DNA of 64,000 nt from a virus (Duplodnaviria; Caudoviricetes), in IMG/VR virus record IMGVR_UViG_3300031994_000061, positions 1 to 64,000 of that record, one strand, 5' to 3'. The notes below the pieces were generated by a model, which saw only the letters and a list, made by a program, of their open reading frames with translations, did not search any database and was not told the origin of the DNA. The translations under genes were made by a program, and so were the position numbers. Positions 1,271 to 39,749 of this stretch are shown in pieces; the first letter of the stretch is position 1, and each line of letters opens with the position of its first letter.

Positions 1271-1349
1271 TCTTAAAAAACGTTAAGGAATTTGGTTATA
1301 TTCTGGAATATGTGTAACTTTGCACCATCAACAATTAAACAATAGGATT

Positions 1350-1775: not shown

Positions 1776-1779
1776 GATT

Positions 1780-2001
1780 ATGAAAAGGATTGCTATTATT
1801 GACCACCACGACCACGAACTGCTTATTGAGGACGTTAACGAACAGGAGCTGGAAGAAAAGTATGGTGGTGACGAACATGCGTACATCAATGACAACTACG
1901 CCTTCGAAGGTGACTACTCATGGGATTGGATTACTGACACCCAGTATTACCCAGAGGGTGACCCAGACCCAATCGAAGTAGAGTTCAAGGATTTGATTTA
2001 A
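1780..2001 (+). CDS. hypothetical acidic early protein
   Basis: ORF track, 73 aa, follows previous gene closely. Confidence 0.7.
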   Translation: MKRIAIIDHHDHELLIEDVNEQELEEKYGGDEHAYINDNYAFEGDYSWDWITDTQYYPEGDPDPIEVEFKDLI

Positions 2002-2086
2002 AAAACGTTAAAAGGTTGGGGTATCTCTTGGATATTCCAATCTTTTTTGGTAACTTTGCCACGTCAAACAATTAAACAATAGAATT

Positions 2087-2386
2087 ATGGAAAAAGAGAT
2101 TATCGCTCTATTAGAGAGCAAAGGAATGACCAGAATGGGATTCGGTCACAATGTCGAAATCACATCAGAGTTCGATGAAGATGGTGATGAATACCCAAGA
2201 ATTGTAAATGCAGTTGAGATTACTAATTCTGGGTTGATTGCCTACGATTCAAATGACGAGGATGAGAACGGAGAGTATGACCCTTGTTGGGAGGTATCTG
2301 AACTACCAGAGGATATACAAAAGGAAATCCTGTGGGCATTAAACACATTCCCTTGGGATGTCTGGAATTGGGAAACTTATAAATAG
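2087..2386 (+). CDS. hypothetical early protein
   Basis: ORF track, 99 aa, promoter at 2051. Confidence 0.75.
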   Translation: MEKEIIALLESKGMTRMGFGHNVEITSEFDEDGDEYPRIVNAVEITNSGLIAYDSNDEDENGEYDPCWEVSELPEDIQKEILWALNTFPWDVWNWETYK

Positions 2387-2390
2387 AATT

Positions 2391-2675
2391 ATGGAAACAA
2401 TAGTAATCAAAGGTGTCAAATGTTTGCTTCCTTGCAAGGTGTTATCACTTGGTCTGGATATGCAGTGTCATCATGTAGTTACACAGAGCGTTATTCTCTC
2501 TGTAAATGAAGCAGAAGATAAGGTTATCATTGAAAGTGAGGGGATTAAGATTCGTTTACGCATGAATGACTTAAATGACTTTTATCCAGATACTACGGAG
2601 AACTATAATATTCTGAAATCGCAATGTGATGAAGAATATAGTCAGTGGTATAATAGAATTGTGAATAATAATTAA
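2391..2675 (+). CDS. hypothetical early protein
   Basis: ORF track 2358-2675; start moved to METIV after upstream stop. Confidence 0.7.
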   Translation: METIVIKGVKCLLPCKVLSLGLDMQCHHVVTQSVILSVNEAEDKVIIESEGIKIRLRMNDLNDFYPDTTENYNILKSQCDEEYSQWYNRIVNNN

Positions 2676-2754
2676 AAAACAAGGCAATTTCTTTGTTATT
2701 CCAGATTTTTTGTGTAACTTTGCACCATATTTTACAACTTAATATTAATCAGTT

Positions 2755-3222
2755 ATGGATAAGACAACAACAAACATGAAAATGAGTGACGCTCTGGAGT
2801 TTATCACAGAGTTCATCAAGAAACAAGTGAAAGATGACTTCCGCAAAGGTAATGGTCTCCAGATTGTTCTGGATGCTTACAACAGAATGCGAGAGGACGA
2901 ACGTGGTGGCACTGACTACATCTTTAACATCAACAAGACAGAAGATTTGGCGTACCTTGTACAAAAAGGCATGATGTCAGCAAAGGCTATCGCTTTCGTG
3001 GTTAACACTCCCTTCCGTTACCCAGATGGATTGTTTATGTTCAACGGCAAGGCTGACGAGGGCATGATGCCAGTGGATAACATAGGGAATTTCCTGCTTA
3101 ACAGCCTCGATACGCTCATTCCATACGTCCTGCTGTATGTTGACAGGGTAAAGGAATATCAAGACTTCTACAGCCGTTATTTCACGGATAAGGTCTGGCA
3201 GATGGATTTCTTTGAAAATTGA
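2755..3222 (+). CDS. hypothetical early protein
   Basis: ORF track, 155 aa, promoter at 2715. Confidence 0.8.
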   Translation: MDKTTTNMKMSDALEFITEFIKKQVKDDFRKGNGLQIVLDAYNRMREDERGGTDYIFNINKTEDLAYLVQKGMMSAKAIAFVVNTPFRYPDGLFMFNGKADEGMMPVDNIGNFLLNSLDTLIPYVLLYVDRVKEYQDFYSRYFTDKVWQMDFFEN

Positions 3223-3334
3223 ATGCTATGGGATTTGGATTATTTCTACTATTATCTCTGGGGGTCATGGTTGCCGATGTGGTGACTTCCCCAGAATTTA
3301 AAAAGAAACTTAAGAACGTTAAAGAATAAGAGTT

Positions 3335-3475
3335 ATGAGAATATTTAGTTTATCATTCAGCTACAGCTACAGGGACGTTTTTCTCCCTTGCATTATCACA
3401 ACTACAGATGCGGAGTTTCACCCCAGAAAGCGACATAAGCTAAAGGGATGGCAGAAAGCGAAAAAAAATCGTTAA
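3335..3475 (+). CDS. small basic hypothetical protein (46 aa)
   Basis: manual translation MRIFSLSF...KAKKNR; fills gap before next promoter. Confidence 0.4.
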   Translation: MRIFSLSFSYSYRDVFLPCIITTTDAEFHPRKRHKLKGWQKAKKNR

Positions 3476-3547
3476 AAACTTGTTTTTCTGGAAAAAAATT
3501 TATATCTTTGCACAAAAATAGCAATAAGCAATATTTATATTACAACT

Positions 3548-3814
3548 ATGGCACAGAGAGTTAACGCAATAAACAAGGCTTTTGAAAACTGCACCTTTAT
3601 CAACAAGGATAAAGCCTGCGACATTATAACAGAGAGGATTGCAGACTACGAGGTTTTCACAGAGAAGCCAGAAGCAATAAAGATGGAGCATATCGACGAG
3701 ACACATGACCGATTATGCTTAGCATTCAGTAACGGAGAACTGGATGGTATTGTGACGTGGGGTAAAACCCAGAACGGATTGCATCACGTCTTTAAGAAAT
3801 TTGAGGCGAAATAA
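3548..3814 (+). CDS. hypothetical early protein
   Basis: ORF track, 88 aa, promoter at 3503. Confidence 0.75.
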   Translation: MAQRVNAINKAFENCTFINKDKACDIITERIADYEVFTEKPEAIKMEHIDETHDRLCLAFSNGELDGIVTWGKTQNGLHHVFKKFEAK

Positions 3815-3879
3815 GTAATATTTATTTGTCATAAAAAGTAACCATCCAGAATCTGTGAAGACAATGGATGGTTTTTTAT

Positions 3880-3895
3880 TGTTTCACGTGAAACA
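3880..3895. promoter_or_regulatory. parS: parS site (perfect palindrome TGTTTCACGTGAAACA)
   Basis: exact match to the widely conserved chromosomal parS consensus bound by ParB/Spo0J. Confidence 0.8.
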
Positions 3896-3896
3896 T

Positions 3897-3986
3897 GCGT
3901 CGGTGGTGGAATGGTGTACACATCAGACTTAAAATCTGACAGATGCCGTCAAAAGCGTCTTGCGGGTTCGACCCCCGCCCGACGTA
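3897..3986 (+). tRNA. tRNA-Leu (UAA), CCA not encoded
   Basis: acceptor GCGTCGG/CCGACGT; anticodon arm TCAGA-CTTAAAA-TCTGA; long variable arm; T arm GCGGG-TTCGACC-CCCGC; discriminator A. Confidence 0.92.
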
Positions 3987-4079
3987 CTAAAAAATGTTAA
4001 AAGATTGAGAGAACTTATGGTTTTCTCAATTTTTTTGTGTAACTTTGCACCATGTTAAACAACTTAATTTTTTTCAATT

Positions 4080-4715
4080 ATGGGACAATATTATAAACCA
4101 ACCTTTTTAAAGGAGAACTGGAAGAGAGTAAAGAAGCCAGTTGCTTATTCGATTCGCTCTTATGATTATGGAGCATTTTGCGGTCAGAAACTCACTGAAC
4201 ATTCATGGTGCGGTAATAAATTTGTTGCTGCTGCCTGCTGGCTGTTGGCAAACGAATACTACGGAAAACCCTTTGTGTGGCTTGGTGACTATGCAGACCC
4301 AAAGGTAACAAAGGCTTATCCAGCCGATGAAAATGATGAGGGAACTTGCAATCTCTATCCTATGGCACGAGAGATTGCGGAGAGTAAGAAGGCTAAAGAC
4401 TTCGCTCTGGCATTCGCTCGTGAATATGGCGACGATGCACCCTACTATGCCTACGCTATCAACTTCACCAAGAAGGAATACGTAAAGATTAAAAAGTATA
4501 ACAAAAAAGAATGGCGAACGCATCCCCTTCCAATCCTGTGCTGCGATGGTAATGGTGAAGGTGGTGGTGACTACGTTGTAAAAAGAGACAACTACGACTG
4601 GCAGAAGGATAAGCGTATCGGTTCATGGGCTTACGACCGCATCGGAGTTACCAACTCCAAGAATGCCATCAAGGGCATGAAAGAAATTGATGGGTATTTC
4701 ATTCCTGCTATTTAA
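4080..4715 (+). CDS. conserved phage/MGE hypothetical protein (MGQYY family)
   Basis: MGQYYKP start, KLTEHSWCGN, HPLPIL and GSWA motifs recalled from mobile-element proteins. Confidence 0.75.
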   Translation: MGQYYKPTFLKENWKRVKKPVAYSIRSYDYGAFCGQKLTEHSWCGNKFVAAACWLLANEYYGKPFVWLGDYADPKVTKAYPADENDEGTCNLYPMAREIAESKKAKDFALAFAREYGDDAPYYAYAINFTKKEYVKIKKYNKKEWRTHPLPILCCDGNGEGGGDYVVKRDNYDWQKDKRIGSWAYDRIGVTNSKNAIKGMKEIDGYFIPAI

Positions 4716-4800
4716 TAAATAATGTTAAGAAATCGGGTGAACATTTGGTTTTCCCGATTTTTTTGTGTAACTTTGCCATGTCAATTTAAACAATAAAGAT

Positions 4801-5094
4801 ATGAAAAGGTATAAAGTAAGAATTACGGACAGGAACGGCTTCTACAAGGAGTTCGATGATGGAAGTTGCATTGGTGGACACTATGGCGAGCCTATTGTGG
4901 TTACTATGTGTCTCAATGAAGCGGAGTTTAAGGCTCTTACAATGTTTATGGGGCAGGTGAGTGATTTACGTCACGATGTTGCCGTATTTAATCTATCTCA
5001 ATGCTGCGTGCTGACCCCTTGGCATAAGAGAGTGATGTGTAAGTATTTCAAGGCTTTCACAGAGCAAGTGACAATAGAGTTTTTATTTAAGTAA
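4801..5094 (+). CDS. hypothetical early protein
   Basis: ORF track, 97 aa, promoter at 4768. Confidence 0.75.
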   Translation: MKRYKVRITDRNGFYKEFDDGSCIGGHYGEPIVVTMCLNEAEFKALTMFMGQVSDLRHDVAVFNLSQCCVLTPWHKRVMCKYFKAFTEQVTIEFLFK

Positions 5095-5106
5095 AACAAT
5101 ATCATT

Positions 5107-5553
5107 ATGGAAAGAGAAGAGATTTTAAAGGAGATTCGCAACATCGTAGGAGGTAAGACCTTCACGTTCTCCGAAGATTATTTGAACAAGGCAGGTCACG
5201 CTTGCCATTGTGTAGGGCAGGAAAGACCTTATAGTTCTATCACTAAGAAATATTTATTTGTATCATGCTTTGCGGTCTATAAGTATGACGAAAATGCTGA
5301 GGAATATGGCACATCTATCCAGAAGTTCCCTATCGTTTATAACAGGATGACAGGTAGCTTTGTTAAGAAGGTTGCGCTTGACGATATGTTTACAAAGGAC
5401 TTGCAGAAGGTTCTGGATGACGTTAAGTATTACCTTTGGTGGGAGGCAGAAGTGAGACTGCCCAAACTCCAGATACAACTCGACGAGGCTAAGAAATATG
5501 CCAATATGTTCTATAAGATGAAGGAGCGTATTGAAAACGATTCTAAGGAGTAA
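5107..5553 (+). CDS. hypothetical early protein
   Basis: ORF track, 148 aa; followed by terminator. Confidence 0.8.
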   Translation: MEREEILKEIRNIVGGKTFTFSEDYLNKAGHACHCVGQERPYSSITKKYLFVSCFAVYKYDENAEEYGTSIQKFPIVYNRMTGSFVKKVALDDMFTKDLQKVLDDVKYYLWWEAEVRLPKLQIQLDEAKKYANMFYKMKERIENDSKE

Positions 5554-5566
5554 ACCTTTTAAAATC

Positions 5567-5606
5567 AGTGCGTTGGACATTGGGGAGTGTTCAATGCACT
5601 TTTTTT
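5567..5606 (+). terminator. intrinsic terminator
   Basis: AGTGCGTTGGACA...TGTTCAATGCACT stem plus T tract. Confidence 0.75.
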
Positions 5607-5690
5607 ATTAGGAAAAAATTTGGTTATTTCGAAAATTTTCTGTAACTTTGCCAACGATAAACAATAAGTATAATTAAATAATAAAGTAAT

Positions 5691-5816
5691 ATGAGTAGTC
5701 AATTTGGAAACCATGCTTATGAAAGCCCACAAGAAAAGTGGTTAGATGAGCAGTATGCATGTGAGAGAGCACAGGGTATCTATCGTAGTGGATATAATTC
5801 GCAGATAGACCATTAG
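5691..5816 (+). CDS. small hypothetical protein (41 aa)
   Basis: manual translation MSSQFGNHAY...; directly after promoter 5643; leader TAAGTATAATTAAATAATA is repeated before the next gene. Confidence 0.55.
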   Translation: MSSQFGNHAYESPQEKWLDEQYACERAQGIYRSGYNSQIDH

Positions 5817-5840
5817 TAAGTATAATTAAATAATAGTATT

Positions 5841-6062
5841 ATGGATATTAAAGAAGTAAGGAGACAATTAATTGATGGTTTGGAGAGTTGCTACACTCCA
5901 GAGAAAATTGAAATCATTGATAAAAGGTTGGGTGAGATTGCTAAGGAAAATGGTCTTACCAATGATGAACTAAACGAATATTGCTGGGCTAATTCAAGTG
6001 AAATGTTTGCTTGCATATTCGACTATAAGGAGTTTGATAAAAACAACTTTGAAGTAGATTAA
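5841..6062 (+). CDS. hypothetical early protein
   Basis: ORF track, 73 aa. Confidence 0.7.
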   Translation: MDIKEVRRQLIDGLESCYTPEKIEIIDKRLGEIAKENGLTNDELNEYCWANSSEMFACIFDYKEFDKNNFEVD

Positions 6063-6080
6063 TTAAATAACATTAGATAT

Positions 6081-6455
6081 ATGAAGAATACTAAGATTTA
6101 CGAAGGCTACAAGCGGAGTGCAGACTTCCTGCTGAACTTCCAGATGTGCCGTGCCTATCTTGGCGAGAATTGTGGTGTAGCACGCATTGTTGAAATTATC
6201 CTTCTGGGCAAGTTCGGTAGTGAATTTGACTTGAACGACCCTAAGAGTTACAAGCGTTTTTCCGAGGCTATCAGAGACTCACAAGGCAAGCGTAATGCCA
6301 TTATCGAATTTAAGCATTTCGACTTCAAGGAGAGTGTTGAGGACATTTTATCCAAGTTCGTGGAAAGCAAGTTCGATAAGATGGTAGCTGCCATAAAGGT
6401 AAATCTGGGGAACTATCCGCTTAAGTTCCGTGACATTGTGGAGCGATATTCTTAA
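6081..6455 (+). CDS. hypothetical early protein
   Basis: ORF track, 124 aa. Confidence 0.75.
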   Translation: MKNTKIYEGYKRSADFLLNFQMCRAYLGENCGVARIVEIILLGKFGSEFDLNDPKSYKRFSEAIRDSQGKRNAIIEFKHFDFKESVEDILSKFVESKFDKMVAAIKVNLGNYPLKFRDIVERYS

Positions 6456-6515
6456 AAAACGTTAAGGAATTTGGTTATTTCCTGGGTTTTGTGTAACTTT
6501 GCACCACCAAACAAC

Positions 6516-6550
6516 AAGGGAGAAAGAAGGTTCGAGTCCTCGCTCCCTTT
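6516..6550 (+). other. tRNA T-arm/acceptor minihelix in 5' leader
   Basis: AAGGGAG...AGG-TTCGAGT-CCT-CG-CTCCCTT just downstream of promoter 6494. Confidence 0.5.
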
Positions 6551-6583
6551 CAAATATTAACAAACAATTTAATTTAAAAGATT

Positions 6584-7051
6584 ATGGAAAAGAAAGTTTA
6601 CGAAATTAAGACTAACAAGGGTAAGAAGACCCAGTATGTTAGATGTGAGCCGACCAGTAACGAGAATATCGTTAAGATGGCTAAAGAGACAAACATGCTC
6701 GTTTCAAAGAAGGAAGTAGCATCGGCAGTGGTTACGGAAGTTAAAGACCCTTCTAAACTCAATCCAGACCATATCTGGGATATTTACCCAAAGATGGCAG
6801 TCCTGTGCTTCGAGGACGAAGAGGGCGATAAACAGACAGTCTGCATCGTTCGTGACCAGCAGTTTGGAACTGATGACCTTCGCAAAGAGCTATACGAGAT
6901 TCTGGCAGAGCGGTTAGCACTGGCAGAAGAAGACGATGAAGATGCTGAGGTTCTGGCTGACTTCAACACTATGATTGATAGCTTGACTATGGGTGTTTGT
7001 GGGAACTGGCTCGACTACGAGGTCTACTATGAGCATCTGGATTTGATATAA
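6584..7051 (+). CDS. hypothetical acidic early protein
   Basis: ORF track, 155 aa. Confidence 0.8.
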   Translation: MEKKVYEIKTNKGKKTQYVRCEPTSNENIVKMAKETNMLVSKKEVASAVVTEVKDPSKLNPDHIWDIYPKMAVLCFEDEEGDKQTVCIVRDQQFGTDDLRKELYEILAERLALAEEDDEDAEVLADFNTMIDSLTMGVCGNWLDYEVYYEHLDLI

Positions 7052-7128
7052 CGCTTCTTTCCATATCTAATATTTAGTTGTTGACGCTGGGCTGTGGCTT
7101 GCTAGGCAGGTTGCAGCCCTTTTATTTT
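7052..7128 (+). terminator. anti-start-codon tract plus terminator hairpin
   Basis: CTTCTTTCCATATCTAATATTTAGTTGTT then GGGCTG...CAGCCC plus T tract. Confidence 0.7.
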
Positions 7129-7203
7129 CTTAAAAAATATTAAAGGATTTGGTTATTACATGGAAAATGTGTAACTTTGCAGCGTCAATAAAACAATAAA
7201 GTT

Positions 7204-7434
7204 ATGGAATATAGTTTAATCATTGAAAAGAAAAATGCTGACCCAGAGTATAAGAATGGGTTGAAGCAATGGAGAGACGTTACGGCTATTCTTAGGAATG
7301 GGCTTGACCAGTGGACTATTAGCGTGCATATATATAAGTATAGCAGTGATAACCGCTTACTTGGAGAGAAGCACGTCACTATGGGTAATCTCTGGGATAT
7401 GACAAATTCACTGACCGATAAGGTCTTATTATAA
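7204..7434 (+). CDS. hypothetical early protein
   Basis: ORF track, 76 aa, promoter at 7172. Confidence 0.7.
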   Translation: MEYSLIIEKKNADPEYKNGLKQWRDVTAILRNGLDQWTISVHIYKYSSDNRLLGEKHVTMGNLWDMTNSLTDKVLL

Positions 7435-7455
7435 ACAACTAACAATTATAAGATT

Positions 7456-8205
7456 ATGGGAAATAAGTTAATTGCAAGGTATCGTCTGGCTAACAAACTA
7501 TTGAAGGTTTACCAGCACGAAGGTAAGGCAGGCATTTGGCTGCGTGGTGTTATGTATGAAGATAAGTGGGATGTCACAACTTCACCAAACAGGCACAGAC
7601 TCGTTAAGGTTGAGGCTGTTAACTTCGATAATGGTACAGAGAATGATGTACGTCGGCATTTTAAAATGATGTGCGCTCGCCCTGTTACGTCTGATGGTTA
7701 TATCGACGTCAATCACAGGGTTATCTGGACTAACGACAACTACGACGAGTGGGAAGCATGTATGCTTATCGACTATCCAGACGAGGAAACAAGGGAAGAA
7801 GAAGGTATCACTATTGACTACGAACGTTATCACGAAGATTGTGACCTGTGTCTTGATGACGAAAGGGCTAATCTGGATATTGAAGTAGATGGCTGTATCG
7901 TGGCTTTCGTTGACCTTGGACTCTGGGATGGCAGACATAATGGTGGTGGTATTATCGGCACTAACGTTAAACAAATTCTGCGTTCTGATTGTGAATATCT
8001 GGATTGGTATTGTGACCAGCATAACGTCCGCTGTAGGGCTTCGCATCACGACGGCACTAACTACTACCTTTACAGGGTTGCAAAGAGCCGTGAGCAGGCT
8101 GAAAACCTTATTAATGCCATTGCCTACAAGGGTATGACAGAAGAGCAGTTTAGAAAGGCAACCAGAAGCCTACGCCCCTACGTGGCAAAGGTGTATGGAT
8201 GGTAA
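7456..8205 (+). CDS. conserved MGE hypothetical protein (DLGLWDGR...HHDGTN family)
   Basis: C-terminal IVAFVDLGLWDGR and SHHDGTNYYLYR motifs recalled from phage/ICE proteins. Confidence 0.75.
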   Translation: MGNKLIARYRLANKLLKVYQHEGKAGIWLRGVMYEDKWDVTTSPNRHRLVKVEAVNFDNGTENDVRRHFKMMCARPVTSDGYIDVNHRVIWTNDNYDEWEACMLIDYPDEETREEEGITIDYERYHEDCDLCLDDERANLDIEVDGCIVAFVDLGLWDGRHNGGGIIGTNVKQILRSDCEYLDWYCDQHNVRCRASHHDGTNYYLYRVAKSREQAENLINAIAYKGMTEEQFRKATRSLRPYVAKVYGW

Positions 8206-8315
8206 GGCTGTAAGTATCCATAATTATAAAAATTGTTAAAAAGTCGAGGAGACCTTTGGTTTTCTCGATTTTTTTGTGTAACTTTGCCGTGTCAAACAAT
8301 TAAATATTAAGTATT

Positions 8316-8624
8316 ATGGAATTACAAAATTTTGAAAACGTGCTTACTGATGGCACAAAGGTGGTTACTCTGGGGATTACAAAAGACCAGAATGACATTG
8401 TATTAAAGATGTTGGAAACTGATTCTGATTCGTTCGGCAATTATTCTCTGGAAGAACCAGACCCAGAAATGGTGGACGTCTGGATTTCGGATGCTTTTAG
8501 TGAAGGTAACGAAGATTACGCACAAGCATTGCAGGATGGGTTAGCAAAAGGTGCTGACATCTATACTCTGGAAGATAGTATAGGTGCTTTTCACCAGACA
8601 TTAGGAGAGGTAATAGTATATTAA
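8316..8624 (+). CDS. hypothetical acidic early protein
   Basis: ORF track, 102 aa, promoter at 8279. Confidence 0.75.
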   Translation: MELQNFENVLTDGTKVVTLGITKDQNDIVLKMLETDSDSFGNYSLEEPDPEMVDVWISDAFSEGNEDYAQALQDGLAKGADIYTLEDSIGAFHQTLGEVIVY

Positions 8625-8646
8625 ACAACTTAACAATTTTACAACT

Positions 8647-9312
8647 ATGAGTAAATTAGATGGAATAACAAAGAGCAGAAGCAAGTCCGAGAGCTACAAG
8701 GGCTTTGCAATCATTAGAGTGTTGGCAGTTCACCATTGGTGGAATAACTTCAATAAGCGTTACGAAATGAGCAGGCAGTACGAGACTAAGAGAGAGGTCT
8801 ATTACGAGTTCTGCAAGGAGGGTGAGGAAACCAGACCTTCACAGGCTTATGGCGTGACGAAAAAGACAAAGGACGAGCTAAAGGAGTGCATCGACAACAT
8901 GATTTCTGGCAAGGAGATTTATTTCACCGAAGCCGAGCGAGAAAAGTATGTGTACAAACCTAACCACAAATGCAAGTGGGCGTATGGTTACAAGTCACTT
9001 ATGCAGATTCTAAAGGAGCATAAGAAGGCTGACAAACGTATGAAAATCCTGTTGGAAGATAGGCTTGATGATGCAAACTTCCACTACGAGGCAGGGGAAC
9101 TTGCAGATGAACACTATGAGGCACTGGAAGATTACATAGCCAGAACCTATCAATTCCGAGAGAAGTTTGAAGTCTATACATCTACGATGCACAAACGTAT
9201 TGATAACCCAGAAGGTCTTGTAGATGGACTTAAAAAAGTACTGGAGGACTATTTGCGCAAGGTAGGCGTTAAGGACACGTCAGTAAATGTGAAATTTGTT
9301 AAAGAATGGTAA
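8647..9312 (+). CDS. hypothetical early protein
   Basis: ORF track, 221 aa. Confidence 0.8.
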   Translation: MSKLDGITKSRSKSESYKGFAIIRVLAVHHWWNNFNKRYEMSRQYETKREVYYEFCKEGEETRPSQAYGVTKKTKDELKECIDNMISGKEIYFTEAEREKYVYKPNHKCKWAYGYKSLMQILKEHKKADKRMKILLEDRLDDANFHYEAGELADEHYEALEDYIARTYQFREKFEVYTSTMHKRIDNPEGLVDGLKKVLEDYLRKVGVKDTSVNVKFVKEW

Positions 9313-9390
9313 AAGATTGGGGCAAGGTTTGGTTAATTCAGATATTTTCCGTAACTTTGCCCCATCAAACAATTAATAAAACATTTAGAT

Positions 9391-9663
9391 ATGAGTAAGA
9401 CAGCAAGAGTCCTTTATTATGTGGACATGGATGATAGCCACAAGTCAGCATTTCTGGTGGTGGATAGCTCACAGGATTTGCGAGACAGCAAGGTGGTTGA
9501 AAAGATTAGAGACGAGTTAGAGGTATGCGGCTTTGGCAGAAAGGGTGTGTGTGGCTCTGTTGCATGGGAGCTGGCTCACAATGAGGTTGCCGAGCTGGAG
9601 TGTCAGATGGGTAGATACCAGTTTGGCATTGAAGACGTGCCTGTAATGCCCTTGATTGGTTAG
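9391..9663 (+). CDS. hypothetical early protein
   Basis: ORF track, 90 aa, promoter at 9352. Confidence 0.75.
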   Translation: MSKTARVLYYVDMDDSHKSAFLVVDSSQDLRDSKVVEKIRDELEVCGFGRKGVCGSVAWELAHNEVAELECQMGRYQFGIEDVPVMPLIG

Positions 9664-9704
9664 GACTTGAATAAGTACAAGAGAGCTATAAAAAGAACAC
9701 AGGT

Positions 9705-9950
9705 ATGAAGATACGTATATTACACGCCTCCGTTAATCCAGAGAAATACGACGTGAAGAAACTGGCTTCAATGGGCTTTGGAGAGGCACAGGAGTTTTTC
9801 GAGGATGACCCCATAGGTTGCTGTAACTGGGGTGTTGATGATGTTGACCCGACGGTATTCAACTGCAAGCATTATTCTCCAGACGGAGCTACAGGAGGCG
9901 ACGGAAGTGATGCCCTGTTTGTCTGGTTTAAACTTGTTCCTTGGCAGTAA
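9705..9950 (+). CDS. hypothetical early protein
   Basis: ORF track, 81 aa. Confidence 0.7.
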   Translation: MKIRILHASVNPEKYDVKKLASMGFGEAQEFFEDDPIGCCNWGVDDVDPTVFNCKHYSPDGATGGDGSDALFVWFKLVPWQ

Positions 9951-9982
9951 ATATTATATATAAACTATAAAAGCATAACATT

Positions 9983-10264
9983 ATGAACAAGACATTAGCA
10001 AGAATGCGTGGCATAGCTCACGCCCAGAACTCCATCCGAAAGAGTCTTAAGGAACAGGAGGAAAAGAACAAGTCACTTAGAGAACAGATTACGCCCATCT
10101 GGGATGACAAGTCAAAGGATTCTGTAGTAGCTGAGCTATCAGTCTCCCTGTCTCTGGGACGTGCTCGTGTTCGTGCGGCACAGGTAGCCCTGCACGAGCT
10201 AAAGAAGTCATTCCGCAACTACAACAAGCGGTACGACAGAGCACAGCGACATGCAGCTCATTAA
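9983..10264 (+). CDS. basic coiled-coil hypothetical protein
   Basis: ORF track, 93 aa. Confidence 0.7.
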   Translation: MNKTLARMRGIAHAQNSIRKSLKEQEEKNKSLREQITPIWDDKSKDSVVAELSVSLSLGRARVRAAQVALHELKKSFRNYNKRYDRAQRHAAH

Positions 10265-10347
10265 AAAATGTTAAAAAGTTGGGGTAACTCATGGTTATTC
10301 CAACTTTTTTGTGTAACTTTGCAGCGTCAATTTAAATTATATGTATT

Positions 10348-11004
10348 ATGGAAAGAACATTTGAAATTATCCCCAACTACATCGACACCATTATAGTGTA
10401 CGATACGCCTGCTAACCGCAAGGCATTGAGAAAACTGGAGCACCCATTTAACAAACTCCACGAGTTCGACGAAAACGGAGAGTGTGAAATTGAAATGGAG
10501 TTCTACGATGGACTGGCTATAGCTACAGATGGTAGCGGTCTGTTTATGACTTACTCTAAGATGGAGTGTATCAAGGAATGCACGAGGAAACAGAATGCCA
10601 TCTGTGACTACACTGGCATTGATGACGGGATTAACCAGTATGACGTTTGTCTCAAATATGGTAAACTGGATTGCGACCCAAAGAATAATGCGTATGTAAA
10701 ATCAACTGGAGACAACGCCTTCAAACTGGCTGAAACCTTTATCCTGCTTGCTGCCGATATATACAAACAGATATACAATATGTCGGGAGTCTATGGCTAC
10801 GACACCGCTGTAGAACTTGTACGCAGCGCAGCACTACGCTTCGAGGCTGAACTGGACTGGCAAGGTGCTTCGGAAGAGCGTGACTACATACTGGAAATGG
10901 AAAAGTTCGAAGAAAAAGAACTGGAGAGTCTTCGTGCTATCTACGATACGGATAGTGATAAGAACTTGCAACGTCATAGTATCAGCAAGACAAGACCACA
11001 TTAA
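10348..11004 (+). CDS. hypothetical early protein
   Basis: ORF track, 218 aa, promoter at 10314; last ~15 codons lie in a direct repeat. Confidence 0.8.
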   Translation: MERTFEIIPNYIDTIIVYDTPANRKALRKLEHPFNKLHEFDENGECEIEMEFYDGLAIATDGSGLFMTYSKMECIKECTRKQNAICDYTGIDDGINQYDVCLKYGKLDCDPKNNAYVKSTGDNAFKLAETFILLAADIYKQIYNMSGVYGYDTAVELVRSAALRFEAELDWQGASEERDYILEMEKFEEKELESLRAIYDTDSDKNLQRHSISKTRPH

Positions 11005-11090
11005 TTGTTAATAAACTATAAAAGATTGGAGTAATACGTGGTTATTCCAATCTTTTTCCGTAACTTTGCCCCATCAAACAATTAAATAAC
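10958..11090 (+). repeat. ~130-bp direct repeat, copy 1
   Basis: ATAAGAACTTGCAACG...TAACTTTGC...AATTAAATAAC, near-identical to 12418-12551. Confidence 0.92.
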
Positions 11091-11097
11091 GAATTAT

Positions 11098-11349
11098 ATG
11101 GAAAAGATTGCAAAATTACGCAAGCAGGTTAAGACCTATGCAACGAAGTACCACAACATGACCGCAATGACAGGTTATGGCAAGAAGATTGAAATGCTCT
11201 ATGATGGCGAGGTGATTGGCACTTACGAGTTATGGAGTATGTACGAGCCAGATTGCAAGACCCCAGAGGAATGGCTTAATAGCAACATCTGTTTCGAGAT
11301 TAGTTTGAAACATCGTGATATTGAAAAGGTTACTCTACGGATGATATAA
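11098..11349 (+). CDS. hypothetical early protein
   Basis: ORF track, 83 aa. Confidence 0.75.
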   Translation: MEKIAKLRKQVKTYATKYHNMTAMTGYGKKIEMLYDGEVIGTYELWSMYEPDCKTPEEWLNSNICFEISLKHRDIEKVTLRMI

Positions 11350-11428
11350 GACGATTTCTTTTCTTTGCTCATATCTTATAAGTTGATGCAGGGTGTTGAC
11401 AATTCGGTCAGCACCCTTAATTTTTTTT
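11350..11428 (+). terminator. anti-start-codon tract plus terminator hairpin
   Basis: CTTTTCTTTGCTCATATCTTATAAGTTG then AGGGTGTTGAC-AATTCG-GTCAGCACCCT and T tract. Confidence 0.7.
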
Positions 11429-11494
11429 AACACTAATTATTTGGCTATTTCATGGTTTTTGTGTAACTTTGCAGCGTCTAAACAATTATTAGTT

Positions 11495-11743
11495 ATGGAG
11501 AAACAAGTCATTAAAAAAGGTACGAAGGTTGAATATCGCTTACCCAACGATAAAGAAACCAATGTAGCAGTGGTTGTAGCCATTGAGGAATGCGAGTGTG
11601 GCGAAAAGTATGGTGAACCCATCGACGAAGTAAACTTCGATGATAGGGCTGGAGATTTCGGGCATGGTGTTGAATACACTTTCAGCCTTGATAATCATAA
11701 GTGGTGTTACGGCTATCAGATTGTAAACATTATTAACAACTAA
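11495..11743 (+). CDS. hypothetical early protein
   Basis: ORF track 11393-11743; start moved to MEKQV downstream of promoter 11464. Confidence 0.75.
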   Translation: MEKQVIKKGTKVEYRLPNDKETNVAVVVAIEECECGEKYGEPIDEVNFDDRAGDFGHGVEYTFSLDNHKWCYGYQIVNIINN

Positions 11744-11796
11744 ACAAATAAATGTACTTAAATCAGTACAAGTAGGTTATTTAATACGCAATCATT

Positions 11797-12297
11797 ATGG
11801 GAGTATCAGAGATTTACCAAGAGATTATGACCAAGTACCCAAACTTGGTTGAAAAACTTCTTGACAAGAGCAGTCTGGAGAGTGATAGTGAACGCCAGAC
11901 CATTTACGGAGATTTGATGGATTGGTTACGTGATTACTACACGATTATACCATTAGCTGACAGGGAACAGGTTGCAAGGTTGTTGCTGGGCAGCTATGTT
12001 ATAAGTCATCCATATTGCCTTCAGAAAACGTACATCGTCTTACAAGAGAGTAACGTGGACGGAGAGATTATTATCAACGCTGTACCATGCGCTACTCTGG
12101 AGGCTGCAAGAAAGGTATTACAGAACGAAAAGAACACTATCCTGCAAGATTCCCCTCACTACGACCACTACACTCCAGAAGAGTTGGAAGAAGAGTTCGA
12201 GATTGAAGAGGACGATGACCGCTGGTATATCAACGACCCCAGCGATGACTACTATGAGGACATTAAGATTATCGAGAAGGTGATTGTCGTGCGCTAA
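11797..12297 (+). CDS. hypothetical acidic early protein
   Basis: ORF track, 166 aa. Confidence 0.8.
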   Translation: MGVSEIYQEIMTKYPNLVEKLLDKSSLESDSERQTIYGDLMDWLRDYYTIIPLADREQVARLLLGSYVISHPYCLQKTYIVLQESNVDGEIIINAVPCATLEAARKVLQNEKNTILQDSPHYDHYTPEELEEEFEIEEDDDRWYINDPSDDYYEDIKIIEKVIVVR

Positions 12298-12314
12298 TAA
12301 TATATACACTATAT

Positions 12315-12464
12315 ATGAACGATAACAGGTTTTACGACAGGCTTACAGGGAGAAGGATTGCACCCTACCCCAGCATGATGCCACGCAGGAGCATGAGAGA
12401 GGTAAAGGCTGACTTTAATAAGAACTTGCAACGCCATAGTATCAGCAAGATAAGACCTCACTGA
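12315..12464 (+). CDS. small hypothetical protein (49 aa) sharing its C-terminus with 10348-11004
   Basis: manual translation MNDNRFYDR...KNLQRHSISKIRPH. Confidence 0.55.
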   Translation: MNDNRFYDRLTGRRIAPYPSMMPRRSMREVKADFNKNLQRHSISKIRPH

Positions 12465-12551
12465 TTGTTAATAAACTATAAAAGATTGGAGTAATACGTG
12501 GTTATTCCAATCTTTTTTTGTAACTTTGCAGCATCAAACCAATTAAATAAC
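12418..12551 (+). repeat. ~130-bp direct repeat, copy 2
   Basis: near-identical to 10958-11090 (offset 1460 bp). Confidence 0.92.
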
Positions 12552-12557
12552 AACATT

Positions 12558-13247
12558 ATGGAAAAGTTTATCGACATTAACAAAATGGTTTTCAGCAACA
12601 CACCTGCCGAGAACATCTTACACTACATCAAGACTGCATCACCGCAGGAGATTCGTAAAACCACACCTGCAACTATCCTTCGCATCATTAGTGAGTGCAA
12701 GAATGATGATGGTGATTTTTGGATTGATTCTGACCGCAGGGCAGGAAACAATTGGGATAGCACCATCGAGCACTTGTATATCTATGGTAATAGACCAATG
12801 CTGATGTTCTATGTGCAGGGTGACAAAACTGATACATCTACAAGTGTCAGCTATACTGAATTTAATTCCTGCAATGGGTATCGTGGTTCTTGCAGGTTGG
12901 GTAGCTTTAGATATGATGCTGACGAGGTGGCAGACGTTATTCGCTGCATCCTTGCAGAGTATGTGTATTACACCTACATTGAGAAAGCAGATAGGGAGCA
13001 GGCACAACGTATAGCAAAGTTACTGAACTACAAGGTAGTAAACCCAGTGTGTGACTATTTCTATAAGGAGTTAAGGCTTAGTAACCTGCCTTTCTCTTAT
13101 GCCACTACGACACCGAGATACAAACAATACTGCAATGGCAAGGAAGCTATTGAAAACTATGCTAAGGAGCACGTCAATGACTTGGAAGGCAAGACCGAAG
13201 AGGAACTTATTACCATATACAAGAAGGTGTTTAGGGAAGGAATGTGA
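12558..13247 (+). CDS. hypothetical early protein
   Basis: ORF track 12498-13247; start moved to MEKFID after promoter 12521. Confidence 0.8.
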   Translation: MEKFIDINKMVFSNTPAENILHYIKTASPQEIRKTTPATILRIISECKNDDGDFWIDSDRRAGNNWDSTIEHLYIYGNRPMLMFYVQGDKTDTSTSVSYTEFNSCNGYRGSCRLGSFRYDADEVADVIRCILAEYVYYTYIEKADREQAQRIAKLLNYKVVNPVCDYFYKELRLSNLPFSYATTTPRYKQYCNGKEAIENYAKEHVNDLEGKTEEELITIYKKVFREGM

Positions 13248-13302
13248 TTTTCGTTTTTCATATTTGGTGGCTGGCTCTATGCGAATAGGGTCAGTCATTT
13301 TT
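13248..13302 (+). terminator. anti-start-codon tract plus GCGA-loop terminator
   Basis: TTTTCGTTTTTCATATTTGG then TGGCTGGCTCTAT-GCGA-ATAGGGTCAGTCA and T tract. Confidence 0.7.
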
Positions 13303-13379
13303 ATTAAATAATATTAAATAATTTGGATATATGCTGGATAATGTGTAACTTTGCACTATCAATTTAACAAACATGAGTT

Positions 13380-13685
13380 ATGGATAAGAGCAAGGTTAGA
13401 TACATCGTAGTGGTGTTCATTGATGGTGTTGGATGCACCCTGCAAGAAGGTAACGTCTTAGCATGGTTCTTTAGACGTTATCCGAAGTGCTACCAATACT
13501 TCGAGAGCGCAAGAAAGAAAGCGAATAGGTTACTCTACCAATACGTGTGCGAAAAGGTATGCGTGTTCAAGGTGGAACTTGAAGAAAGATTATCCTGCGA
13601 CCAATACGACAAGTGGTGCGAGGACGAGAACAGAAATATGTGGGATTCATCTAAATTGTTTAACAATATTGATATAAGGTCATGA
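13380..13685 (+). CDS. hypothetical early protein
   Basis: ORF track, 101 aa, promoter at 13346. Confidence 0.75.
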   Translation: MDKSKVRYIVVVFIDGVGCTLQEGNVLAWFFRRYPKCYQYFESARKKANRLLYQYVCEKVCVFKVELEERLSCDQYDKWCEDENRNMWDSSKLFNNIDIRS

Positions 13686-13797
13686 AGAAGTATAAGTATA
13701 TTAACGGAATCAAGCACAAGGCAATAGGCTACGCCTACGATGGTAAACCGATTGGCTGGATTGCTTGTGGTAAGAACGATTAAAAACATATAAGGTT

Positions 13798-14148
13798 ATG
13801 AGAGCAAGGCAATCATTTACAACAGAGGGCAAGCGAATTTCTTTCAGTGTTGATAACAACTATTACGTTATCGGAGAGGACAAGAAAAAGGTCTTTAGTG
13901 GCTCTTTTAATGCTTGCAAGTATGCAGTAGCCTACACAGAGGTTAAAGTGGATTGTGGGGAAAAATATGAGAATAGATTTGGTGTCCCTGCATCCATCCG
14001 CTATAACAATGGCTTGGTAGGTTATCAGAACATTACCTATTTCAACGATAGGACAGAAGCAATGGAGGACTTTAAGGGCAGACAGAAGTTAACCCCGAAG
14101 TTTATGGGAGGTAATTACACGGATGTATTTTTTATTGAAAATAATTAA
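13798..14148 (+). CDS. hypothetical early protein
   Basis: ORF track, 116 aa. Confidence 0.75.
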   Translation: MRARQSFTTEGKRISFSVDNNYYVIGEDKKKVFSGSFNACKYAVAYTEVKVDCGEKYENRFGVPASIRYNNGLVGYQNITYFNDRTEAMEDFKGRQKLTPKFMGGNYTDVFFIENN

Positions 14149-14152
14149 AATT

Positions 14153-14368
14153 ATGGCAAACGTTATTAGAGTAGGATTAGGGCAAACAAAAAGCGGTAAG
14201 ATTCTGGATAGAGAAACGCAGTGGTTTAATGCTGATTCCCAGAAGTCATTACTTATGGCTCTGGAGAGATTCCACGAAACCCATAAGCCATTGTTTATCT
14301 CCAGAGGTAACAAGGCTTACGAAGAGTTAAGTTTACAAGAGTTATTAGACATGATAGCAGAGAGTTAA
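14153..14368 (+). CDS. hypothetical early protein
   Basis: ORF track 14123-14368; start moved to MANVIR. Confidence 0.7.
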   Translation: MANVIRVGLGQTKSGKILDRETQWFNADSQKSLLMALERFHETHKPLFISRGNKAYEELSLQELLDMIAES

Positions 14369-14372
14369 GACT

Positions 14373-14600
14373 ATGGCAAGAAAGATTGTAAAGAAGACCA
14401 ACATATATTCGGTAGATTGGTGGCGAGGTGATTGGAATTATCGCACGACTACTGGCTGCGATTGGGAAGCGGTAAAAGAATGCAAGAGGGCAGCCAAACT
14501 AATGGGTGAGAAAGTTACCTACGAAAAGACTGATGTAAAGGAAGATGTTTACTACATCGACACTCATCGTGGTGGTTCACCGAGATTTATGGCACGTTAA
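14373..14600 (+). CDS. hypothetical early protein
   Basis: ORF track, 75 aa. Confidence 0.7.
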   Translation: MARKIVKKTNIYSVDWWRGDWNYRTTTGCDWEAVKECKRAAKLMGEKVTYEKTDVKEDVYYIDTHRGGSPRFMAR

Positions 14601-14710
14601 GTTACTTTCTACAACTCCAAATGTGAGAAGAAATACGATAAGGTGTACCCTGCATAATATATAATAAATGTTAAGGGATTTGGTTATTACATGGAAAATG
14701 TGTAACTTTG

Positions 14711-14968
14711 CACCGACTTAAAAAAGTACATAAAGGTACATAGGCATAACACATTATATTTTGTTTTGGATTAGTTAATCAATAACTTATCAGTCTGCGA
14801 AGATAGATAAGTTTTTATAAAGGACTTAAAAAAGTACATTACAACATATATAGGAAGATACAACTCGATTTGCTCATAATAATATTCAAAAGGTTTTTAG
14901 TTATTCATGTTTTTCATGGTTTTAGGTTTTATCCTGCTGGTCTGAGAAGATAAGCAGGATTTTTCTTT
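14711..14968 (+). ncRNA. candidate tandem small RNAs from a dedicated promoter
   Basis: promoter at 14703 with no ORF downstream; two units each starting GACTTAAAAAAGTACAT (14715, 14823) and ending in a hairpin plus T tract. Confidence 0.55.
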
Positions 14969-14997
14969 ATGTGTGTACGTGTCTCAATTGTCTCACG

Positions 14998-15013
14998 TGT
15001 TTCACGTGAAACA
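14998..15013. promoter_or_regulatory. parS: parS site (perfect palindrome TGTTTCACGTGAAACA)
   Basis: second exact copy; overlapped upstream by degenerate TGTCTCACGTG. Confidence 0.8.
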
Positions 15014-15039
15014 TAATACGTAATGTGTATGCGGGTGGT

Positions 15040-15400
15040 GCACCCTCCAGGAGCAGCCCAGGCGTGCCTCCCTACACAACACGAGCACGAAGGCAGGTAA
15101 GTGTGCTGGCAACACGAGCACACGAGAGTCAGCACAAGGTATCGTGACGTGCTGGATAATGTGTCGCCAGCATAACCTCAGCTACGCACCCACACGCTAT
15201 AATATATATTAATCTATATATAGGCGAACCAGTGTACCAGCTGGGTAGTACACCAGCACACCCAGCCTGCATCCTGCCAGCCTGCGGTTTGTAAAAACTT
15301 TTCATGCCCTATATAGTATATGCTGGCAGTTGTAAAGAAATCGGAAAACCCAGCCAGCATCCATCCAGCAAGCCAAATGTAAACGATTTGAAACAAATCT
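15040..15400 (+). repeat. CCAGC/CCTGC-rich intergenic tract
   Basis: dense CC(A/T)GC pentamers, mostly on the + strand; similar tracts at 16993-17290 and 18060-18665. Confidence 0.7.
15306..15322. promoter_or_regulatory. repeated motif CCTATATAGTATAT (copy 1 of 4)
   Basis: other copies at 17175-17190, and inverted at 18546-18562 and 19673-19688. Confidence 0.65.
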
Positions 15401-15483
15401 TAATTTTTCATAAATTCTTTGGCTGGTTGCCAAAAAATGCCTAACTTTGCAGCCGAAATCGTTTAATATTAATTTAATTTATT

Positions 15484-16992
15484 ATGAGCAAAATGAATTT
15501 TTCAAAGTTTCAGATGGCTATCTTCAATGAAGTAGCAAACGGACAAGGCAATTTAGCTATTAATGCGGTTGCTGGTAGCGGTAAGACCACTACGATTGTG
15601 GAATGCTGCAAGTTGTTACGTCTTAACAAGTTTGACGTAAAGTTTTTGGCTTTTAATAAAGCTATCGTACAAGAACTTGAAATGAAAATCGGTAACTATG
15701 CCGACGTTTCCACCCTGCATTCTTTTGGCTTTGCAGTGCTCCGCAAGGTTAACTCTAAGGTTAAGATTAATAATCGTAAATATATTAATTTTATACGTGA
15801 AAAGGTTGATAGGAATGACAAGAACTTTGTCGCCATCGTGAATAACACTAACAAGCTATTTAACCTTTGCAGGGTTAATTTGGTTCAGTCTGGTGACATG
15901 AGTTCAATTAATGCTATATGCGACGAACATCAGATAGTAACTATGGGTAACGAAATGACCATCGTTAATGCCCTGCTGAAAGATTGCTATCAGCTGGATA
16001 ATGTGCCAGCACCCGAAATTGATTTTACCGATATGCTGGTTTTACCCTTGACCTATAAGTGTTATATCCCTTCCTACAAGTTCGTGTTTATTGACGAATG
16101 CCAAGACCTTAACTGCGCCCAGCGTGAACTGATGCTATATGCTGCAAGAAGAGGACGTTTTGTTGCCGTTGGCGACCGCAACCAAGCTATTAACGGCTTT
16201 GCTGGTGCTGACTGCAATAGTTTCGATAAGATTGCAACCCTGCCTAATACCAAAGAATTGCCACTTAGCGTTAACTATCGTTGTGGTCGTGCTATGATTG
16301 AACTTGCCCAGCAAATCGTTCCTGCAATACAAGCACATAATGGTGCTATCGAAGGTGACGTTAATCGTGTGACTGAAATCACTTTAGGACTATTCCAGCC
16401 TAATGATATGGTGCTTTGCCGCACCACTGCTCCGTTGGTCTCTATGTGTTTCAAACTGATACAAGCTGGTGTAACCGCTATCGTTAAAGGTCGTGATATT
16501 GCAGAAGGTTTGATTAACCTTATCGACAAGTCGGAGGCTAAGACTATGAAGGGTTTCGAAAGTTACGTAGAGATTGAGAAACAAAAGCTGGTTAAGGACA
16601 TCTGCAAGAAGGAAAATTGCACTGCCGAAGAAGCGGAGGAAACAGGTCGCTATATAGCCTATATGGATAGAGTTAATTGTATCTTCGCCATCGGTGAAAA
16701 TGTTTCCAAGTTGGAAAGTGTTAAAGACTATATTAATAAGATTTTCAGTGACGAAAATATCGTGAATGCCGTTACGCTTTCAACCGCCCACAAGTCTAAG
16801 GGTTTGGAAAGTAATCGTGTCGTTATCCTGCTGCCTAACAAGTTGCCGTTGACATGGAAAAATCAGCTTGATTGGCAATACCAACAAGAGCGCAACCTGC
16901 AATATGTAGCCTATACAAGAGCCAAGAAAGAACTGGTTTTTGTTGACGTTGAACAAAAAGACCTATTCAAACTTAAATTCGACAACAAGTAA
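15484..16992 (+). CDS. UvrD/Rep-like superfamily 1 helicase
   Basis: AVAGSGKTT Walker A, DECQD Walker B, GDRNQAI, STAHKSKGLE, YVAYTRAK. Confidence 0.92.
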   Translation: MSKMNFSKFQMAIFNEVANGQGNLAINAVAGSGKTTTIVECCKLLRLNKFDVKFLAFNKAIVQELEMKIGNYADVSTLHSFGFAVLRKVNSKVKINNRKYINFIREKVDRNDKNFVAIVNNTNKLFNLCRVNLVQSGDMSSINAICDEHQIVTMGNEMTIVNALLKDCYQLDNVPAPEIDFTDMLVLPLTYKCYIPSYKFVFIDECQDLNCAQRELMLYAARRGRFVAVGDRNQAINGFAGADCNSFDKIATLPNTKELPLSVNYRCGRAMIELAQQIVPAIQAHNGAIEGDVNRVTEITLGLFQPNDMVLCRTTAPLVSMCFKLIQAGVTAIVKGRDIAEGLINLIDKSEAKTMKGFESYVEIEKQKLVKDICKKENCTAEEAEETGRYIAYMDRVNCIFAIGENVSKLESVKDYINKIFSDENIVNAVTLSTAHKSKGLESNRVVILLPNKLPLTWKNQLDWQYQQERNLQYVAYTRAKKELVFVDVEQKDLFKLKFDNK

Positions 16993-17007
16993 CACCCAGC
17001 ATCCCAG

Positions 17008-17042
17008 CACGAAAGACCTACCCTAATAAGGTGGGTCTTTTT
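17008..17042 (+). terminator. intrinsic terminator (CACGAAAGACCTA family)
   Basis: AAAGACCTACC-CTAATAA-GGTGGGTCTTT plus T tract. Confidence 0.85.
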
Positions 17043-17336
17043 ACGTTTAAGCCTATTTCCTGCCCTTCTAAGGACGTTTTACCCAGCATACCCTATAACT
17101 ATACCCCCAGCACTAAAACAAGCCAGCACAAGCCACTTTTAACCTGCACATGATTTTTTATTTACAATCTATCTGCCTATATAGTATATCCCAGCCGTAG
17201 CTTTCCGATTTTTTTACAAACACACTTTTTTCATAAAAAACGTTAAAATCTTTGGTAGTATGAAATATTATTATTACCTTTGCCAGCGAAAACCGATGCA
17301 CTCCGCAAAGGTAGTAACTTTTAATACAACATTATT

Positions 17337-18059: not shown

Positions 18060-18074
18060 GCCAGCAATACCCAG

Positions 18075-39702: not shown

Positions 39703-39749
39703 TATCTTTGTTTTTATGCAAAGATATATAAAAAATATTAAAAAACAAA

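Follow-up and report, generated by a model that had tools for sequence, protein, structure and literature searches.

What would a large, uncultured tailed phage do with the centromere of a bacterial chromosome? The window considered here (the whole stretch of DNA that was analyzed, 64,000 nt) is part of an 85.9-kb (85,867-bp) viral record, a fragment (CheckV completeness, 29%) of a phage genome estimated at ~300 kb, and it carries two copies of the chromosomal site parS. We describe their sequence, setting, and conservation and weigh what may read them. Judged from sequence, the phage most likely borrows the ParB protein of its host through these sites.

The two sites and their surroundings

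A 16-mer search of the window found TGTTTCACGTGAAACA exactly at 3880 to 3895 (site 1) and 14998 to 15013 (site 2), 11.1 kb apart, bearing out an earlier note that had reported two exact, intergenic copies of chromosomal parS. Both are perfect 16-bp palindromes matching the canonical chromosomal consensus (TGTTNCACGTGAAACA, a 16-bp palindrome) at 16/16 positions, and site 2 is preceded by an overlapping half-site-like sequence, TGTCTCACGTG. No third site with ≤2 mismatches occurred elsewhere in the 64,000-nt window, and no further match was found in the remaining 22 kb, giving a count of two for the whole record. Shuffling the window gave an expectation of 0.03 matches with ≤2 mismatches (0/100 shuffles reached at least two), and base composition predicts 3.3e-5 perfect sites in 85,867 bp, versus 2 observed. 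Half-sites were not enriched (13 counted versus 9.9 expected).

Each site lies downstream of an intrinsic-terminator-like hairpin and T-run. At site 1, this element (3840 to 3877, plus strand; read from sequence) belongs to an 88-aa gene (3548 to 3814), lies directly 5′ of the site, and is kept in all four phages compared (the window record, G000, and its relatives G001, G207, and G208). Site 1 ends 1 nt before a plus-strand tRNA-Leu(taa) gene (3897 to 3987; the sole match in an Rfam search), in agreement with its earlier description as immediately 5′ of tRNA-Leu. The terminator-like element at site 2 (14931 to 14964, plus strand; inverted repeat I13) lies 34 bp 5′ of the site and is conserved in G001. 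On its other side, site 2 adjoins an intergenic region rich in CCAGC/CACGAGCA repeats (15030 to 15480), a region that may be an iteron-like origin or a regulatory array and in which CCAGC density reaches the maximum of the record (14 per 500 bp versus a mean of 1.0); the orthologous arrays likewise mark the peak of their records, with 19 per 500 bp in G207 (mean, 1.26) and 12 in G001 (mean, 1.22). This region separates site 2 from the first gene downstream, a plus-strand UvrD/Dda-like DNA helicase (15484 to 16992; phrog_1967, E = 7e-96) whose best cultured relatives are from Bacteroides phages (41% identity).

Both sites fall within the early region (1315 to 18734, plus strand; from the ORF map), which holds 12 plus-strand copies of TAACTTTGCA, the Bacteroidota −7 box TAnnTTTG. 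They stand at operon boundaries, just past terminators and ahead of host-type promoters. A sigma-70 promoter scan was also run on the window, the sigma-70 model being uninformative for a Bacteroidota host. parS sites are normally found near the origin of the replicon that carries them, and the earlier note had placed a candidate origin/terminus at 19.7 kb. That origin is unsupported, because the skew change near 16 to 20 kb tracks the coding strand and coincides with its switch; the CCAGC-repeat array abutting site 2, upstream of the helicase gene, is the better candidate, as a candidate origin region only.

This setting bears on one alternative, in which clamps of host ParB would modulate transcription or replication of the early region locally, by silencing or insulating the operons that the sites enclose or by organizing the helicase-side repeat array, rather than partition the genome. 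ParB spreading silences neighboring genes in P1 and Pseudomonas aeruginosa, and the exact placement of the sites at operon boundaries, with site 2 against the densest CCAGC cluster of the record, would suit such a role. G001, however, retains its array without site 2, and we regard this account as decidedly unlikely.

Probable host and search for a ParB reader

The likely host phylum is Bacteroidota, because TAnnTTTG boxes are in excess (15 copies in the window versus 0.24 expected) and the nearest cultured relatives of the phage infect B. thetaiotaomicron. No near-identical DNA was found among cultured phages for the first 20 kb, and a marker-protein scan of metagenomes was also negative. Chromosomal parS (≤1 mismatch) was present in 164/201 sampled Bacteroidota genomes, mostly as 1 to 3 clustered copies per genome (reversed-pattern control, ~0), and all 3 Bacteroidota genomes tested, as well as the B. 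thetaiotaomicron control, had ParB_N genes; the match between host ParB and parS is thereby assessed at the level of the phylum rather than of the host species.

A search for ParB, ParA, and integrase domains (ParB_N [PF02195], PF13614, and PF00589) gave no match over cut-off in G000 (86 kb), G001, G207 (134 kb), or G208, a set covering 134 kb (~45%) of the ~300-kb genome of this clade. The earlier statement that the window has no parB gene accordingly extends to the whole record and, for parA and parB alike, to its three relatives: no parA-parB operon adjoins either site, and no ParB_N or ParA-type ATPase occurs anywhere in these records.

A partition system of the phage's own, in which a ParB (with or without ParA) encoded in the remaining ~55% of the genome would read the sites in the manner of plasmid prophages such as P1 and N15, is unlikely. 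Room for such genes is left by the completeness of the records (29% for G000 and 45% for G207), and no longer contig was obtained by coverage extension, by walking outward off the G207 and G001 ends, or by exact-protein look-up. Against it stand the 134 kb of G207 and the additional flanking DNA of G001 and G208, all free of ParB_N and ParA; the layout of known par loci, which have the centromere beside parAB, whereas the window sites lie among early genes; and a gene content in which neither an integrase nor plasmid-type genes were seen.

Other viral records carrying parS bear on the same point. In a set of 50 IMG/VR records, each bearing a perfect parS, 48 were without a ParB_N match, as were 13 of the 14 that were ≥90% complete. 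The two exceptions favor a self-encoded reader: G230, one of the 14, has a ParB_N match that falls short of the cut-off and is broken by a TGA stop, and G234 (80% complete) has the sole match over cut-off. Orphan phage parS is common, given that 48/50 proportion, and this small survey suggests that the strategy known from phage phi29 is widespread and under-described.

Retention and loss among related phages

G207 carries parS at both orthologous intergenic places (15/16 each), and the only change falls at the degenerate 5th/12th (N) position of the consensus, giving TGTTCCACGTGAAACA; of the chromosomal matches listed, this is also the most frequent variant. Around site 2, the flanking sequence is unalignable between the window and G207, though the site itself is retained; sites like those of G207 are expected at 1.7e-5 per 900-bp intergenic region. 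Because they are kept in the same two intergenic places of this relative, where tRNA-Leu is also arranged beside site 1 as in the window, the 16-mers look like genuine, selected copies of the host-type chromosomal centromere.

Retention is incomplete across the clade. In G001, site 1 is perfect, site 2 is absent, and the tRNA is reduced to a remnant; in G208, both sites are absent, with a clean ~17-bp indel at site 1 and the tRNA present without parS. Conservation in relatives, on which the earlier note had made its reading depend, thus held for both sites in G207 and for site 1 in G001 but failed for site 2 in G001 and for both in G208. Since no parS was found in the more distant cultured Bacteroides phages SJC03 and DAC16 either, the sites are dispensable. 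The presence/absence variants in this one clade would make a ready comparison set.

Two genes, at 8647 to 9312 and 14373 to 14600, co-occur with the parS sites across the four phages. They were considered as a source of an alternative, phage-encoded reader, a candidate that was set aside because they had no Pfam or PHROG match; an Atlas match to a co-occurring-gene protein scored 0.76 with no family, and its AlphaFold model (pLDDT, 38) was unusable.

These comparisons also weigh on the idea that the 16-mers have nothing to do with ParB, being instead neutral leftovers of captured host DNA, operators for some unrelated DNA-binding protein of the phage, or an RNA hairpin in a tRNA leader/terminator region. 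The contact of site 1 with a tRNA gene and a terminator, the loss of sites in some relatives, and the two co-occurring genes could each be read in this way. A 16/16 match found twice, and retention in G207 despite turnover of the flanks with change only at a tolerated position, are unexpected for neutral DNA or an unrelated operator, however. Site 2 has no adjoining tRNA, a hairpin formed there would have an AT-rich stem of just 6 bp, and the co-occurring proteins offer neither a family match nor a usable fold, making this explanation very unlikely. The idea that parS was captured together with a host tRNA was rejected, as chromosomal parS had no tRNA beside it in any of 5 genomes examined.

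The pattern of loss likewise informs a different use of host ParB, in which replicating phage DNA would titrate the protein (and SMC loading) off the host origin region and disturb segregation or division. With only 1 to 3 host copies of parS, few phage genomes would be needed to outnumber the chromosomal sites, and the phage sites lie inside the early region, both in keeping with a decoy. Two sites are nevertheless few, their loss in G001 and G208 argues against strong dependence, and the sequence reads the same under titration as under positioning of the phage genome; we consider titration improbable.

Probable role of host ParB and comparison with known systems

The best explanation, to which we assign a probability of about 55%, is that host ParB loads on both sites and that the phage genome is held or partitioned with the host nucleoids. 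ParB binding, its spreading, and a partition or positioning benefit are all inferred here from sequence. The earlier note had proposed that the phage recruits host ParB to condense, position, or segregate its DNA or else titrates it off the host chromosome, a reading that the sequence supports in part. In a Bacteroidota cell, a host ParB dimer would recognize each parS site, close as a CTP-dependent clamp, and slide over the surrounding ~10 to 15 kb, a stretch that would comprise the early region driven by host promoters and the repeat array before the helicase gene. Through the resulting ParB coat, the phage could draw on the SMC loading and ParA-driven positioning that ParB ordinarily brings. 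Most probably, the gain would be that an infecting or slowly developing genome is kept with the nucleoids and is not diluted when lysis is delayed. Recognition of replicated phage DNA by ParB could fail if that DNA is base-modified, a possibility raised by two phage proteins, a member of the thymidylate-synthase family that carries an insertion and a dNMP kinase.

Bacteroidota do not sporulate, so the outcome must differ from the prespore segregation of phi29; a carrier-type state would be the nonsporulating counterpart of the Spo0J-dependent entrapment of that phage. The carrier state is a conjecture, because no lysogeny or episome-maintenance genes were seen. More broadly, and only tentatively, orphan host-type parS might be a general phage strategy across phyla, with the site pair here loading ParB-CTP clamps over the early region and the iteron-like array and thereby tying the positioning of the genome, the shut-off of early genes, or the use of the origin to host ParABS/SMC, with effects on nonlysogenic persistence or timing in a nonsporulating host. 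If host ParB does load there, a Bacteroidota phage of gut or rumen type that looks virulent could be carried, partitioned, or organized by the segregation machinery of its host without lysogeny, which would matter for understanding the persistence of Bacteroidota phages alongside their hosts.

The idea is not new in principle, and the window phage joins a known precedent. The virulent Bacillus phages phi29 and Nf carry host-type parS (Meijer et al. 2005, as summarized in PMC2731898), and by the same account phi29 has five such sites, with host Spo0J taking part in the segregation of its genome. Our literature searches found use of phage parS via host ParB reported only for phi29 and Nf. The likeness is that of a phage without its own ParB (for the window phage, in the DNA covered) bearing several host-type parS copies. 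phi29, a podophage with a 19-kb protein-primed genome, has a spore-forming host, five sites, and entrapment in the prespore as the outcome, whereas the window phage has a genome of ~300 kb, a probable nonsporulating Bacteroidota host, and two sites, one at a tRNA gene and one at a repeat array. The chromosomal parS found in most bacteria, Bacteroidota included, has the same sequence and likewise occurs at low copy, in pairs or small clusters, but the window sites are viral, lie away from a chromosomal origin, and have no cognate parAB in their replicon as covered. The plasmid prophages (phage-plasmids) P1, P7, and N15 also carry centromere sites on phage DNA, serving partition of the episome; theirs are element specific and lie beside their own ParA and ParB, whereas the window has the sequence of the host, and the search of the four records gave no parA, parB, or integrase. 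From the other ParB-less phages with parS in IMG/VR, the window phage differs in lineage, and for it we show the orthology of two sites among relatives and a clean presence/absence indel.

parS sites in the early region

Exact copies of TGTTTCACGTGAAACA were found by motif search at 3880-3895 (site 1) and 14998-15013 (site 2), where the earlier note had placed them; each matches, by sequence definition, the chromosomal parS bound by ParB, and each lies between genes, as that note had also claimed. No other match was present in the window with up to 2 mismatches allowed (0.03 further matches expected from dinucleotide shuffles), and the entire 85,867-bp IMG/VR record (G000), of which the window covers bases 1-64000, holds 2 parS, none outside the window, against a chance expectation of 3.3e-5 perfect sites from base composition. 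Site 1 sits between the terminator-like hairpin and T-run of an 88-aa gene (3840-3877) and a tRNA-Leu(taa) (3897-3987) that begins 1 nt past its end. A hairpin and T-run (14931-14964) lies 34 bp before site 2, and a UvrD/Dda-like helicase gene (15484-16992, plus strand) lies 470 bp downstream. This early-region helicase has a UvrD/Dda-like paralogue (37909-39783; ~33% mutual identity) in the minus-strand block.

G000 is a phage fragment (listed as "linear"; CheckV completeness, 29%) encoding two helicases, a sigma factor, a Lon-like protease, a thymidylate-synthase-family protein, a dNMP kinase, a CCA-type nucleotidyltransferase, and a Thg1-like protein. Completeness estimates for this and three related records (29% for 86 kb, 45% for 134 kb, 10% for 31 kb, and 11% for 36 kb) roughly agree on a complete genome of about 300 kb. 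The sequence TAACTTTGCA, which fits the Bacteroidota -7 promoter box TAnnTTTG, is present in 15 copies versus 0.24 expected (1315-18734 on the plus strand, 25157, 34306, and 36685), with 12 of the 15 copies on the plus strand at 1.3-18.7 kb, and probably marks host-polymerase promoters. Because of this enrichment, and because the helicase's best cultured matches are Bacteroides thetaiotaomicron phages (41% identity), a bacterium of the phylum Bacteroidota is the most likely host. As the plus-strand boxes span 1.3-18.7 kb, both parS sites would lie in an early region that the host RNA polymerase transcribes.

A further repeat, GACTTAAAAAAGTACA, occurs 4 times versus 0.11 expected (9227-9242, 9664-9679, 14715-14730, and 14823-14838), in places directly downstream of a TAACTTTGCA box; it is also found in the relatives G207 (around 18780) and G208 and may serve early genes as a common leader or transcription-start element. 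The nucleotidyltransferase (416 aa) adjoins the Thg1-like tRNA-His guanylyltransferase family protein (267 aa) at 40694-42731 (minus strand), and together with the phage tRNA they could form a tRNA repair or maturation module. The thymidylate-synthase-family protein (378 aa; 52905-54041, plus strand) is longer than the 266-position Pfam model by an insertion of ~110 aa, and the dNMP kinase (36738-37598, minus strand) is T4-gp1-like; the phage may make a nonstandard pyrimidine. A DNA modification, for which these nucleotide-metabolism genes leave room, might hinder ParB recognition.

Conservation and the adjoining repeat array

Three syntenic IMG/VR relatives were found with a marker protein (7456-8205), and conservation, a check proposed in the earlier note, held in part. 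G207 (134 kb; marker identity, 71%) has sites at both places, TGTTTCACGTGGAACA 1 nt before tRNA-Leu(taa) and TGTTCCACGTGAAACA some 500 bp before the helicase gene. G001 (31 kb; 87%) has a perfect parS after the same terminator at the site 1 place and none in the intergenic region orthologous to site 2, and G208 (36 kb; 64%) has none at either, the terminator T-run abutting the tRNA at the site 1 place through a clean ~17-bp indel. The tRNA-Leu beside the perfect G001 site is a 5'-half remnant (locus L004, 1525-1600) not called by ARAGORN. Each G207 site has a single base changed relative to the window site; the change falls at the degenerate 5th/12th position of the consensus and gives the variant commonest among the chromosomal matches listed for our Bacteroidota sample. 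The site 2 flanks of the window and G207 are not alignable; by chance, a 900-bp region would contain a parS with ≤1 mismatch with a probability of 1.7e-5. Two cultured Bacteroides phages that are more distantly related, SJC03 and DAC16, carry no parS. Relatives can thus dispense with the sites, and the evidence as a whole indicates that they were gained within the clade, are held under ParB-type sequence constraint, and can be lost.

Site 2 directly abuts the densest CCAGC/GCTGG cluster of its record (15030-15480; 14 per 500 bp versus a mean of 1.0). Arrays at the orthologous place in G207 (locus L258, 18900-19400; 19 per 500 bp) and G001 (26400-26900; 12 per 500 bp) are likewise the densest of their records (means across the three, 1.0-1.3 per 500 bp). 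The G208 region upstream of the helicase gene has ATCCTGG repeats in place of CCAGC. A ~75-nt block inside the array, centred on an AT-rich palindrome and located around 15190-15265, is nearly identical throughout between the window and G001 (one 1-nt gap). The array resembles a lineage-specific set of iterons and may act as an origin or regulatory region. As a candidate origin it is preferable to the skew change near 16-20 kb, which follows the coding strand and leaves the earlier proposal of an origin/terminus at 19.7 kb unsupported.

ParB in phage and host

The absence of parB from the window, previously remarked, extends to all four related records: neither ParB_N (PF02195) nor a ParA-type ATPase was found in G000, G001, G207, and G208, which cover less than half of the ~300-kb genome, apart from a subthreshold P-loop match at the gene for the dNMP kinase. 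These records also yielded no tyrosine integrase, and examination of two proteins co-occurring with the sites yielded nothing usable. The sites do not fit the definition of a self-encoded ParABS cassette, no parAB being adjacent to them. Among 50 IMG/VR records with at least one perfect parS, chosen among at least 119 matching stretches, 2 had a ParB_N match (1 over the cut-off), and 13 of the 14 with ≥90% completeness had none. Orphan parS is the rule in these 50 records among the matches listed, which lowers the odds of a hidden parB in the present phage. More than 119 IMG/VR stretches contain a perfect parS (L006-L085; records G209-G258). Several are complete, phi29-like genomes of 15-18 kb that have inverted terminal repeats, others measure 54-122 kb, and some contigs have 4-5 sites within about 1 kb.

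Bacteroidales genomes were reached via a 16S signature scan, and the first five all carried 1-3 clustered parS (≤1 mismatch). An even sample of Bacteroidota had such sites in 164 of 201 genomes, mostly 1-3 per genome (reversed-pattern control, nearly always 0), so in perfect sites the phage matches a typical host chromosome; its sites also agree with host sequence usage in this phylum-level sample. Several sampled genomes have a parS pair ~1.9 kb apart, and the small (~2-2.8 Mb) genomes G011, G051, G059, G075, G095, G163, G167, and G175 have exactly two perfect sites at that spacing. ParB_N genes were present in all three Bacteroidota genomes tested, none adjoining parS; parB lay hundreds of kilobases or more from the parS cluster in 3/3 checked (G002, G003, and G075).

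Proposed use and known systems

In the best-supported reading, host ParB would load at both phage sites, spread across the early region, and connect phage DNA to the host ParA and SMC machinery. Since Bacteroidota are not known to sporulate, whereas the host of phi29 does, the benefit must differ from that in phi29; we favor genome retention and partition in delayed or slow infections. ParB titration is a weaker alternative outcome, as is local silencing or origin organization; the sequence by itself is compatible with each of these outcomes. In the literature searched, phi29 and Nf were the only phages described as exploiting host ParB by way of their own parS sites. The present pair matters chiefly as one case of what seems to be a widespread, little-studied phenomenon. 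Self-encoded ParABS cassettes have adjacent parAB, whereas the sites of this phage do not. It groups instead with phi29 and Nf, which carry host-type parS; for phi29, the experimental precedent is that of five parS sites, with host Spo0J involved in segregating the phage genome (PMC2731898). The parS pair is a real, conserved further case of this type.
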